Source of the DNA: Candidatus Bipolaricaulota bacterium | GTDB taxonomy: Bacteria; Bipolaricaulota; Bipolaricaulia; UBA7950; UBA9294 | Direction of reading: 5' to 3' | DNA length: 64,000 bases | NCBI GenBank assembly: GCA_041302525.1 | Contig: JBFYQX010000052.1 | Span: 1,518-65,517 of the forward strand | In this document: positions 4,322 to 7,522 of the stretch, piece by piece | How positions within the stretch are numbered: position 1 is the first letter of the stretch | Layout: every line of letters begins with the position of its first letter | Translations under genes and position numbers: made by a program | The notes under the pieces: model-generated | The model's input: the letters and a program-made list of their open reading frames with translations, nothing else | Databases searched by the model: none | Told to the model about the DNA's origin: nothing

Positions 4322-7300
4322 ATGAGTAGCGGACGTCCCCCGCTTCATGTCCTCGATGTGGATGCCCAGACCGCAGCGCTGATGGCCGCCGAGGAACGAC
4401 GTCAGAGGGAGAAGATCATCCTGATCCCGTCGGAGAGCCTCACGCCGCTCGTGGTGCGGGAAGCGCTCGGCTCGGCCTTCACGAGCGTCTACGCCGAGGG
4501 GTACCCGCGGAAGATGATGATGCGACAGACCGAGGAGCAGCTGGCGGATCTCGACGCACAGCTGGCAAGCTACCGTCGCTACGCGGACCGCCGTTTCTAC
4601 AAGGGGACAGAGATCGCAGACGTCCTCGAGTCATTGGCCGCACGGCGCGCCGCCGAGTGCTTCGCCACGCCGGAGTACCCGGCAGAAGGGATCTACGCCA
4701 ACGTGCAGGCGCTCTCAGGGGCCGCGGCGAACCTGGCCGTGTACGACGCGCTCGTGCAGCCGGGAGAGACGGTCATGGGCATGGCGCTCACCGAAGGGGG
4801 ACACCTTACGCACGGGTCGGAGTTCAACGTCACCGGCCGCAGGTACCGTATCGTCTCCTACGCCATCGACCGCAAGACAGGCAAGCTAGACTACGACAAG
4901 ATCCGCGCCCTGGCCCGTGAGCACCGTCCACGCATGATCATCGGCGGCTTCACGTCGTACCCGTGGCAACCCGACTGGGCCCTGTTCCGCGAAATCGCCG
5001 ACGAGGTTGGAGCGATGCTTCTTGCCGACGTCGCGCACACGGCCGGACTCATCGTCGGAAGGGTCTACCCCAACCCGATTGGACATGCCCACGTCATCTC
5101 GTTTACAACCCACAAGACGCTCTGCGGGGGGCGCGGCGCTGTGATCCTGACGACGAACTCCGAACTCGCCGCGCGAATCGACACGGCGATCTTCCCTGGG
5201 CAACAGGGCGGCCCCCACGTAAACAAGTTCGCCGCCCTCGCGGTCGCGCTTCAGCTGGCGAAGGAACCCGCGTTCACCGCCCTGCAGCAGCGTATCGTGG
5301 AGAACGCGCAGCACCTGGCGCGCGCGCTCCAGGAGAACGGCCTCGCGCTCGCCTACGGGGGCACAAACACCCACCTCTTGCTCGTCGACCTGCGCGAGAT
5401 CAAGACCGAGACCGGGTTCGTCATGATGGGCGAGATCGCCTCGCGCATCCTCGACCTGGTCGGCATCGTGTGCAACAAGAACACCCTCCCCGGCGACACG
5501 AGTGCCGCGGACGCACATGGGATTCGGCTCGGCACGCCGTGGGCGACCCAACGGGGCATGGGCAAACAGGAGATGGAAGCGATCGGCCGGATCGTCGCGC
5601 GGGTTCTGCTCTCGATCCAGCCATTCTCCTACCAGGGGCTGCGCGGCGAGCTGTCGCGCGGCAAGCTCCCGGTGGAGACCCTGGAGAAGGCCCGACAGGA
5701 GGTGCGCGAGATCGTGGCCCGCATCGATCCGCGTCTCGGCGGACGGTTCGACGGCGAGACGCATCGGCAGAGCGGCTCTTCCTGGGACGTCCTGCGCGTC
5801 CGCAGCAGCCGAGCCGGCGCGCTCTTGCAGGAGGCCGCGACGAGCGACCTTCGTACGCTCGCGCCGGCCGGCACGTCGCGCGCTTTCTTCCTCGATGGGG
5901 CCGGCCGGGTTCTCTCGGGCGCCGTGATCGGCATGGTGGGAAGGGACGACTACGTCGTCCTGGTGCCTCCGAGCCGCGGCCGCGAGCTGTGCTCATGGCT
6001 CCAGGGCTTGGCCGAGGGCTATACGTTGTTCGACTCCGAGGACCTCTTCCGCAAGGTGCAGGGGCCGGCCGTGGTCGAACTCGTTGACCCCGCGGCGCTC
6101 CCCGCCTCGGCCGCGACGTGGCTGTCCCTGCGACCCGAAGGGGAGGACGCCGGGGCAGGACAACCGGGCGACGAACTCGCACGGGCCTACCCACAACGCT
6201 TCGCGCTCGACAAGCCCTACTTCGTGGGACTGCCCAAGCTCACCGACCGGGCGACTGCGCCCGCGCCGGCGGCCTTCGCGTGGGCAGGCGACGTCGCCGC
6301 GGGCCTGCGGACGACCCCGCTCCATGATTCCCACGTCGCCCTCGGGGCCAGGCTCGTGCCCTTCGCCGGCTGGGAGATGCCGGTGTGGTACACGTCGGCG
6401 CTCGAGGAGCACCGCGCGGTGCGCCACGCGGCCGGGCTGTTCGACCTCGGCCACATGGGCGTCTTTCACGTCGAGGGAGACCACGCGACGGAGTTCCTGA
6501 ACGCCGTGACCTCGAACTACGCGGGCTGGCTCGAGGACGGTCAGTCCCATTACGCCTACCTGTTCGGCCCCGACGGCGCCGTGATCGACGACATCTGGGT
6601 GTACCGCCGCGCTTGGAACCGGTACCTCGTCATCGTCAACGCGTCGAACGAGCCGAAGGATTGGGATTGGCTGAACGGAGTGAATGAGGGCCGGTACTCA
6701 GTCGACCTCGGCCGCCCAGGCTGCCGGGTCACGCCGGGCGTCGTGCTCCGCGACCTGAAGCGTGAGCGCGGCGTAGTGGACGTCGCCCTCCAAGGGCCCA
6801 AGAGCCAGGCGGTGTTGGCCCAGCTCCTCGGCCCGGCCGAACGGCGCTGGGTCGAAGGACTCGAACGCACGGAGTTCTGCGAGATCTCCGTCGATGGCCA
6901 TCAGCTGCTCGTGGCGCGAACAGGGTACACGGGCGAGCCGCTCGGCTACGAGATCTACGCCGCTGCGCCCGACGCGCTCTGGCTGTGGGAGCGCCTCCTC
7001 GACGTTGGGCGCCCCCTGGGGCTCCTCCCCTGTGGCCTCGCGTCACGCGACTCAACGCGCACGGAGGCCGGGCTGCCGCTCTACGGACACGAGATCGCCG
7101 GCCCGCACGGAGTGAATCCGTTCGAGGCAGGATTTGGCCCCTACGTCAAGCTGCACAAGTGCTTCTTCATCGGGCGAAAGGCATGCGTCGACGCGGCGCG
7201 CGCGCTCCGGCGCGAGGTGGTCCGCTTTGAGGCCGACGCGGGGGCTCGCCCCGTGCGCGAAGGCGCCCTGACCCTAGATCGCAACGGGAACGTGCTCGGG

Positions 7301-7522
7301 CGCGTGACGAGCTGCGTCAGTCTCGGCAATACGCAAACGGGCCTCGCGCTGCTCGACCGGTGCGGCGTCCCCGTGGGCACCCAGCTCCTCCTGCTCCCCG
7401 CGCCGCGGGCCGGGGCATCGTCGGGGGCGAGCGAAGGCTCTCGGTACGCGGTGCCCAGCCCTGGCCGGATCGTCGCGCGGTTCTTGGCGCAGAGCCAGCC
7501 CGCGGAGAGCGCGGCGGAGTAG
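4322..7522 (+). CDS. Fusion protein: serine hydroxymethyltransferase-like PLP domain (N-terminus) joined to a glycine-cleavage T-protein/aminomethyltransferase-like folate-binding domain (C-terminus). About 1066 aa.
   Basis: One uninterrupted frame. The N-terminus has SHMT hallmarks ([24 protein letters not shown], PLP-lysine motif [17 protein letters not shown]). The C-terminus has GcvT hallmarks ([57 protein letters not shown]). The ATG at 4322 has AAAGGAG 6 nt upstream. The track ORF begins at GTG 4304. Confidence 0.85.
   Translation: [1066 protein letters not shown]

Follow-up and report, generated by a model that had tools for sequence, protein, structure and literature searches.

The 64,000-nucleotide (nt) stretch of Candidatus Bipolaricaulota DNA analyzed here (contig JBFYQX010000052.1; referred to as the window) contains a gene at positions 4322 to 7522 whose single reading frame joins a serine hydroxymethyltransferase (SHMT) to a glycine-cleavage T protein (GcvT, aminomethyltransferase). 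The + strand open reading frame (ORF), running from GTG 4304 or ATG 4322 to 7522, is free of interruptions. A strong ribosome-binding site, AAGGAG at 4311 to 4316, precedes ATG 4322, and the upstream gene ends at a stop codon (4305 to 4307) that also lies ahead of this ATG; therefore, the 1066-amino-acid (aa) product is the likely one. An NCBI protein entry (P0001) is identical to it. The GC content at third codon positions (GC3) in the frame of the fusion was 0.79 to 0.93 in all 300-nt blocks, the presumed junction at 5522 to 6422 included. The ORF, the ribosome-binding site and the even GC3 thus agree with the initial annotation of this DNA, which had described a single 1066-aa frame at 4322 to 7522. 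The gene and its parts are as follows.

4322 to 7522, + strand: fused SHMT/GcvT gene, 1066 aa plus stop (SHMT, degenerate GcvT subdomain, linker, complete GcvT)
4311 to 4316, + strand: Shine-Dalgarno sequence AAGGAG, 5 nt before ATG 4322, read directly from the DNA
4322 to 5731, + strand: SHMT domain, dependent on pyridoxal phosphate (PLP), aa 1 to 470, of the "long" PRK13580-like type with a C-terminal extension (aa 432 to 470)
4511 to 4591, + strand: 27-aa insertion, aa 64 to 90, between the SHMT motifs YPxK and RFYKG, conserved in the family
5114 to 5116, + strand: codon of the PLP-binding lysine K265, equivalent to K226 of B. stearothermophilus SHMT, invariant in 75/75 fusions
5771 to 6091, + strand: middle domain, aa 484 to 590, a degenerate internal copy of the GcvT portion with the catalytic Asp-Asp loop
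6092 to 6301, + strand: variable linker, aa 591 to 660, mean conservation 0.37, with sparse secondary structure in the model
6302 to 7411, + strand: complete GcvT domain with C-terminal barrel, aa 661 to 1030, recognized by PF01571, 1yx2 and Foldseek
6587 to 6592, + strand: codons of D756 and D757 (motif VIDD), which align with IDD in the E. coli T protein (catalytic D97) and are invariant in 75/75 fusions

The SHMT and GcvT halves and the region between them

The N-terminal half matched the Pfam family PF00464 (SHMT) with an E value of 1.5e-116 (389.8 bits against a threshold of 27; best stretch aa 87 to 424). It also scored above the cutoff of the NCBIfam SHMT subfamily NF000586 (426 bits against 335) and reached 316 bits with NF010094, the PRK13580-like SHMT, so that the SHMT domain proposed at first is borne out by the profile scan. 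A reading of this half as a fluorothreonine-transaldolase-like enzyme or an aminotransferase gave only marginal scores and was rejected. The SHMT half is about 42% identical to the B. stearothermophilus SHMT structures. An AlphaFold2 (AF2) model of the fusion (predicted local distance difference test [pLDDT] 76, predicted template modeling score [pTM] 0.71) was compared with solved structures by Foldseek. Its SHMT half has the fold-type I PLP fold and aligned with 2vi8 and 1dfo at a target template modeling (TM) score of 0.77 and 40 to 42% identity; the N-terminal dimer-contact segments were of low confidence in this monomer model. The Pfam and PDB alignments break into two stretches at the insertion of aa 64 to 90.

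Residues were assigned by alignment to the SHMTs of B. stearothermophilus and E. coli, and their conservation was assessed in an alignment of 75 full-length fusions with 44 to 78% identity, drawn from all lineages found. K265, the PLP lysine of the T-T-H-K-T motif, and the cofactor-holding D236 and H239 align with K226, D197 and H200 of the B. stearothermophilus enzyme and are invariant, as are Y57, E59, Y93, H161, R402, N385 and N387; Y61, R91, H264 and R271 were also checked. The residues of the folate-dependent reaction are thereby kept, namely, E59 (Y-A-E-G-Y), Y93 (R-x-Y-x-G) and N385/N387 (N-K-N), together with the carboxylate-binding R402. The insertion itself has a mean conservation of 0.64.

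The C-terminal half matched PF01571 (GCV_T) at an E value of 1.1e-78 over aa 667 to 939 (264.5 bits against a threshold of 25.6). Its C-terminal barrel matched PF08669 weakly (E value of 0.012; 15.9 bits against 25.9), and beta strands were predicted at aa 965 to 1025 in the AF2 model. Of the three Pfam families suggested for checking, PF00464 and PF01571 were thus found with strong scores, PF08669 with this weak one only. In Foldseek, the model aligned over the whole of the T proteins 1yx2 and 1woo (TM scores of 0.87 to 0.89), suggesting that the GcvT-like domain is complete, as had been proposed. The model resembles both SHMT and T-protein structures. The nearest solved relatives of this half are T proteins, with B. 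subtilis 1yx2 first (E value of 7e-62), followed at 6e-56, and with 1woo among them. The trimethylamine N-oxide (TMAO) demethylase, SoxA and DMGDH were far weaker in the PDB comparison, at E values of 1e-24 to 1e-17. The profiles of the H-protein-independent families (DMGDH, SoxA, DmdA, LigM and TMAO demethylase) all stayed well short of their cutoffs and of the GcvT scores (soxA, 119 against 1164 bits; TMAO demethylase, 124 against 1100; DmdA, 70 against 410).

On this side, residues were assigned by alignment to the T proteins of B. subtilis, T. maritima and E. coli (1vlo/3a8i). D756, D757, N773, R909, D910, R913 and E915 are invariant in the 75 fusions, and the TGYTGE loop was checked as well. 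The complex of the E. coli T-protein D97N mutant, 3a8k, was among the structural matches of the fusion model. The PLP-lysine and GcvT motifs reported at first were recovered as the K265 motif and at aa 666 to 690 and aa 868 to 879. The evidence points to the C-terminal half being a genuine glycine-cleavage T protein rather than an oxidase-type folate module.

Nearly all of the checked catalytic and folate residues of both domains are invariant, and the few exceptions vary in 1 to 7 sequences. The two full domains are the best-conserved regions of the protein, with mean values of 0.71 to 0.75. Judged by these patterns, both halves look active. A dead pseudoenzyme half, retained for regulation or for folate or glycine binding, might be suspected, as the protein already has one clearly degenerate GcvT-derived piece and its C-terminal barrel matches PF08669 weakly, but the invariance or near-invariance of the checked residues in 75 sequences from several phyla and the strong conservation of both full domains make this highly improbable.

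The region between the halves had been taken for a linker of about 190 aa. This holds for aa 591 to 660, which are variable, but not for aa 484 to 590, which form a folded and conserved piece of degenerate GcvT. This middle domain gave a weak match to Pfam GCV_T (E value of 3.8e-6, profile positions 47 to 154), and its comparison with aa 708 to 814 of the same protein by hhalign gave a probability of 99.6% (E value of 3e-24). Ser-Gly stands where GcvT has the catalytic Asp-Asp. The middle domain is folded in the AF2 model (pLDDT 83 to 93), and its mean conservation is 0.55. It may serve as a structural spacer or docking element.

Distribution of the fusion

Among 5.8 billion proteins, a cluster search found at least 120 clusters (at the 90% identity level) with 62 to 79% identity to the window protein, nearly all 1050 to 1077 aa long and with 95 to 100% coverage. 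Their named members come from Candidatus Bipolaricaulota. In a scan of GTDB with one genome per species, 570 related stretches were found, and the best 80 loci were analyzed; in 80/80 of these, a single ORF covers both halves. About 33 of the best 80 belong to Bipolaricaulota (59 to 78% identity), some of them mislabeled as Thermotogae, Atribacteria or Neomarinimicrobiota. The remaining loci, at 44 to 53% identity, come from Anaerolineae, Thermoflexia and other Chloroflexota, a Fraserbacteria metagenome-assembled genome (MAG), a complete Myxococcota chromosome, and Spirochaetes and Pirellulales bins. When 1.84 billion representatives (50% identity) were searched exhaustively with HMMER, about 65 full-length fusion clusters of 1029 to 1339 aa emerged. 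The cultured Thermoflexus hugenholtzii JAD2 also has the fusion (WP_088571714.1), which is named "glycine hydroxymethyltransferase" or "GcvT" depending on the source. The fused architecture, which might have been confined to a single genome, is thus conserved across several phyla.

An assembly or read-through artifact that joined two adjacent genes had been considered at the outset. The same continuous ORF is present in 80 independent assemblies and at least 120 clusters; a cultured isolate and complete chromosomes are among its carriers, and the junction region is conserved, folded and of uniform coding signal. These results exclude a read-through made by the assembly, and the probability left to an artifact is next to nil. 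At the level of sequence comparison, the data show the fusion to be real, ancient and widespread, with hundreds of Bipolaricaulota and Chloroflexota genomes carrying it.

No natural split forms are claimed from the proteins of about 600 aa ("SHMT+middle" or "middle+GcvT") in the representative search. The half-length form P0350 is a gene-calling artifact: the DNA of its locus (L081, about 4591 to 7848) holds a complete fusion ORF, while the public call begins at an internal GTG (6001), so that about 1.4 kb of DNA coding for SHMT goes uncalled. Miscalled starts of the same kind may account for some of the "GcvT-only" database proteins of about 600 aa. The entries P0310, P0328, P0314 and P0322 stop abruptly and appear truncated.

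Genomic context of the fusion and its upstream gene

Of the evidence for a true T-protein role, the order of genes in relatives carries the most weight. In an Anaerolineae locus (L044), the order is fusion-gcvH-gcvPA-gcvPB. The same order, preceded by an unknown gene, is found in locus L053, and in L050 one extra ORF separates the fusion from gcvH, gcvPA and gcvPB. The order in L069 is gcvPA-gcvPB-fusion, and L041 has a convergent gcvH-gcvPA-gcvPB set plus lplA (lipoate-protein ligase). Pfam confirmed the genes of these five loci, and the stretches examined around them showed no separate gcvT. Just downstream of the fusion in L069, a Spirochaetales MAG, there is a duplicated pair of genes of 211 aa and about 515 aa (14092 to 18333). 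The second copy has an Rfam match to PYLIS_3 (pyrrolysine insertion, mttB type; 17848 to 17947), which suggests that the pair are methylamine methyltransferase genes.

Glycine riboswitches are known to be associated with gcvT-type genes of glycine catabolism. In locus L038, an Rfam-confirmed tandem glycine riboswitch (9663 to 9854) ends 75 nt before the ATG of the fusion (9929). In L053, a glycine riboswitch at 8612 to 8794 heads the operon of the unknown gene, the fusion, gcvH, gcvPA and gcvPB; its second aptamer was detected only by a home-made covariance model of the glycine aptamer, which also gave extra riboswitch candidates. The glycine-aptamer candidates of L043 were not confirmed at the Rfam threshold and were not used. 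In relatives, the fusion is thus a member of gcv operons and of the glycine-riboswitch regulon.

A gene resembling glyoxylate/hydroxypyruvate reductase lies near the fusion in seven Chloroflexota loci, downstream of it in six of the seven, which points to glycine/serine metabolism. Opposite-strand glycine riboswitches were observed several kilobases downstream of the fusion in L034 (19814 to 20012, minus strand), L052 (20353 to 20461, minus strand) and L065 (13421 to 13528, minus strand). They head genes that include dehydrogenases of the glyoxylate/hydroxypyruvate-reductase-like type, and a 355-aa ORF directly follows the riboswitch of L034.

In Bipolaricaulota, the fusion has a different neighbor, which in the window is the following gene.

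3183 to 4307, + strand: upstream partner gene, 374 aa, belonging to no Pfam or NCBIfam family; its N-terminal part of about 210 aa has a predicted nucleotidyltransferase (GT-A-like, CofC/FbiD-like) fold

A gene of this family, which comprises 326 "hypothetical" proteins, lies directly upstream of the fusion and on the same strand in 32/32 Bipolaricaulota loci with upstream DNA, usually with a 4-nt stop/start overlap. The upstream gene is translationally coupled to the fusion and is part of the same unit in Bipolaricaulota. A homologue lies at most about 1.1 kb ahead of the fusion in five other loci; clear homologues (37 to 39% identity) precede it in the Fraserbacteria locus and in three Anaerolineae loci, and the riboswitch-controlled operon of L053 holds a weak C-terminal homologue (30% identity, E value of 2e-20). 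Most Chloroflexota loci lack the gene. Pfam and NCBIfam gave only stray Glyco_transf_4 matches (E values of about 1e-3) in 4/35 members. The AF2 model of the upstream protein (pLDDT 89) had its best Foldseek matches in Rv2983/FbiD 6bwg (E value of 1.4e-7) and in CofC 2i5e and 7p97, at 11 to 18% identity; 3-phosphoglycerate guanylyltransferase was also among the nearest structures. In the model, the CofC/FbiD-like fold covers the N-terminal half of the protein only. This gene is the least explained part of the locus.

The local gene order is kept, with an HD-domain gene, tandem 45-aa ORFs, rpsF-ssb-rpsR, the 374-aa gene, the fusion, a metallophosphoesterase gene, peptidase genes, and genes for CorA, HlyIII and YchF. 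No glycine riboswitch or other Rfam family was detected near the window gene; the only Rfam matches were two tRNAs at 40.4 to 40.6 kb, tRNA-Val and tRNA-Cys (40442 to 40596). Control by a glycine riboswitch was likewise not seen in the Bipolaricaulota loci.

Several other features of the window were recorded. A tandem repeat with a 163-nt unit (1545 to 1847, 97% identity between copies) contains the minus-strand ORFs 1546 to 1683 and 1709 to 1846, and both copies encode the 45-aa hydrophobic peptide MKWGGF.REGEKKMKKLFRGKAVLVVLTVAAAAMVLMETLKWRPF. Three such ORFs occupy the equivalent place in locus L082 (7024 to 7483), flanked by the HD-domain gene and rpsF. At 10697 to 12613 (+ strand), a small LysW-like zinc-ribbon ORF comes after a gene for an M20-family peptidase, and these genes may be part of an amino-group-carrier (LysW/LysK-type) pathway for lysine or arginine. 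Adjacent genes with saccharopine-dehydrogenase domains and an AlaDH/PNT N-terminal domain lie at 36847 to 39545 (minus strand).

Function of the fused protein

The best explanation of these results, and in our judgment a probable one, is that the fusion is a bifunctional enzyme in which an active, folate-dependent SHMT and a genuine H-protein-dependent T protein would couple glycine cleavage to serine formation. The T domain would work with a lipoyl H protein, a P protein and a dihydrolipoyl dehydrogenase, all encoded by separate genes, and would convert the aminomethyl group bound to the H protein to methylene-tetrahydrofolate (methylene-THF), or the reverse. The SHMT domain would then combine methylene-THF with a second glycine to give serine and THF, or the reverse. 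The net reaction would be 2 glycine + NAD+ + H2O <-> serine + CO2 + NH3 + NADH, the reactions of both halves being reversible. Fusion would set a fixed 1:1 stoichiometry and hold the two activities in close proximity. Folate may be passed directly between the two sites and not released, and the protein may be at least dimeric through its SHMT half. The coupling of one-carbon transfer through tetrahydrofolate, put forward in the initial annotation, is a sensible rationale for the fusion.

The supply of partner proteins can be judged from a related genome. In the supplement of Hao et al. (2018; PMC6092417), BARAN1_v2_0410 of the closed Candidatus Bipolaricaulis anaerobius genome is labeled "glyA/gcvT" and is the only gene given for both EC 2.1.2.1 and EC 2.1.2.10, while gcvH/gcvPA/gcvPB are at 0562 to 0564 and lpd is at 0087 (PMC6092417 supplement). 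BARAN1_v2_0410 appears to be the counterpart of the window fusion, matched by its label and not by sequence comparison; MAG proteins of Candidatus Bipolaricaulis at 67% identity to the window protein are full-length fusions. In Bipolaricaulota, the gcv partners thus appear to exist but to be unlinked to the fusion, which appears to be the sole gene assigned both functions. In this lineage, the fusion probably provides the cell with its SHMT activity as well as its T-protein activity.

Several points weigh against this explanation. By tblastn, gcvH, gcvP and lplA were not found in the 64-kb window, in agreement with the earlier remark that no gcvH or gcvP lies nearby, nor in the 33 Bipolaricaulota loci with flanks of up to 10 kb; lpd was not found near the fusion in the window or in these loci either. 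The set of glycine-cleavage partners in the genome of the window is assumed from the related genome. Since gcvH and gcvP are encoded elsewhere in Candidatus Bipolaricaulis anaerobius (PMC6092417), their absence near the window fusion is no argument against a role in glycine cleavage. The window protein also falls just below the NCBIfam GcvT cutoffs (NF001567, 283.6 bits against 300; TIGR00528, 228.3 against 235.85). The orthologues in the Anaerolineae locus L044 and in Thermoflexus japonica (L075) exceed both, with 313 and 294 bits for TIGR00528 and 342 and 317 bits for NF001567. Finally, in the reductive glycine direction, both halves would consume methylene-THF, so that channeling would bring no benefit there.

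Two other functions were weighed against the bifunctional enzyme. The GcvT-like half could act as an H-protein-independent folate module, in the style of DMGDH or sarcosine oxidase, that captures a one-carbon unit set free when serine or a different beta-hydroxy amino acid undergoes SHMT-type aldol cleavage. GcvT-like domains do so in DMGDH, SoxA and TMAO demethylase, which are the weaker matches here, and both the absence of gcvH/gcvP near the fusion in Bipolaricaulota and the position of the window protein slightly under the GcvT equivalog cutoffs would fit such a module. However, the SHMT half keeps its own folate-dependent residues (E59, Y93 and N385/N387 are invariant), and therefore a helper folate domain is not needed. 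The affinities of the C-terminal half (E value of 7e-62 for T proteins against 1e-17 to 1e-24 for oxidase-linked domains) and the orthologues that score above the GcvT equivalog cutoff, lie beside gcvH/gcvP and stand behind glycine riboswitches also disfavor it. The likeness to DMGDH and sarcosine oxidase drawn at first is thereby weakened, and we regard such a module as very unlikely.

A specialized paralogue is quite unlikely as well, if slightly less so. It would act with the upstream nucleotidyltransferase-like protein in a separate, undescribed pathway, for example, for a modified amino acid or folate, while the housekeeping SHMT and T protein would be encoded elsewhere. The coupling of the upstream gene to the fusion throughout Bipolaricaulota and its recurrence in the Fraserbacteria and Anaerolineae loci are in line with this idea, as are the family-specific 27-aa insertion and C-terminal extension of the SHMT half and the extra degenerate domain. 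On the other hand, the gene table of the closed Bipolaricaulis genome gives one gene for both EC numbers (PMC6092417 supplement), and the fusion stands in place of gcvT in gcv operons. The upstream gene's weak homologue in L053 is located within a riboswitch-controlled gcv operon, which points to ordinary glycine cleavage, and the lack of the upstream gene in most Chloroflexota loci indicates that the fusion does not depend on it.

The bifunctional enzyme shares features with several known systems. Like the canonical GcvT proteins (B. subtilis 1YX2, T. maritima 1WOO and E. coli 1VLO/3A8I), the fusion has the three-domain fold in its model (TM score of 0.88) and keeps the residues of the folate site as well as the catalytic Asp loop, and its relatives have the same operon partners, gcvH/gcvPA/gcvPB, and the same control by glycine riboswitches. 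The PLP lysine and the folate-dependent catalytic residues of the SHMT half are those of stand-alone GlyA. Unlike these proteins, the fusion is one polypeptide, joined by a degenerate GcvT copy and a variable linker of about 70 aa, and its SHMT half differs from canonical GlyA in the 27-aa insertion and the C-terminal extension. During photorespiration in plant mitochondria, glycine decarboxylase and SHMT convert 2 glycine to serine, CO2 and NH3, and SHMT receives its methylene-THF from the T protein. This couple shares the net chemistry proposed here, but the plant proteins are separate and co-localized at high concentration, whereas the fusion is covalent and its hosts are mostly anaerobic or thermophilic bacteria.

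In DMGDH/DMGO, SoxA and TMAO demethylase (9Q59), a GcvT-fold module shares a polypeptide with an enzyme that makes or uses one-carbon units, as in the fusion. These modules take the one-carbon unit from the partner site with no H protein, whereas the domain of the fusion is far nearer to T proteins and co-occurs with gcvH/gcvP. DHFR-TS, FolD and formiminotransferase-cyclodeaminase are bifunctional folate enzymes for which cofactor hand-over has been proposed. They likewise fuse consecutive folate activities, so that what one site produces can be used at the other, though they come from other domain families, and hand-over in the SHMT-GcvT fusion is putative. Fluorothreonine transaldolase (TIGR04506) is also a natural fusion of an SHMT-fold PLP enzyme, but its partner domain and chemistry differ, and the window protein reached 95 bits against a cutoff of 650.

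The initial annotation had held that GcvT-like domains are not known to be fused to SHMT. This does not stand as worded, as the fusion is already in databases for hundreds of genomes and was once labeled "glyA/gcvT" (PMC6092417). Beyond that supplement label, full-text literature searches found no paper that discusses or characterizes an SHMT-GcvT fusion. A natural covalent fusion of SHMT and T protein thus seems not to have been reported or investigated before.

A further-reaching and unlikely possibility is that the fusion, its middle domain and the cotranscribed CofC-like protein form a dedicated glycine-serine machine. A bound (poly)glutamylated folate would shuttle between the T and SHMT sites, and the CofC-like protein would serve glycine cleavage or folate handling as a new accessory factor, carrying out, for example, nucleotidyl transfer on a cofactor or on damaged folate. 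If this were true, the machine would be a fixed gateway between the methyl branch and glycine/serine in the Wood-Ljungdahl-type Bipolaricaulota.

For the bifunctional enzyme itself, the value is moderate and lies in folate enzymology, pathway engineering and annotation correction. The hand-over of methylene-THF has long been debated for plant mitochondria, and the fusion is a natural test case for hand-over between glycine cleavage and SHMT. For engineered glycine/serine and reductive-glycine pathways, it offers a ready-made part. The cultured host Thermoflexus hugenholtzii makes experiments feasible, and the upstream gene, tightly linked to the fusion, is a separate lead. Public databases name the fusion after one half, "serine hydroxymethyltransferase" or "GcvT," in hundreds of genomes; as a consequence, SHMT or GcvT can be counted as absent by mistake when the metabolism of Bipolaricaulota and many Chloroflexota is reconstructed.

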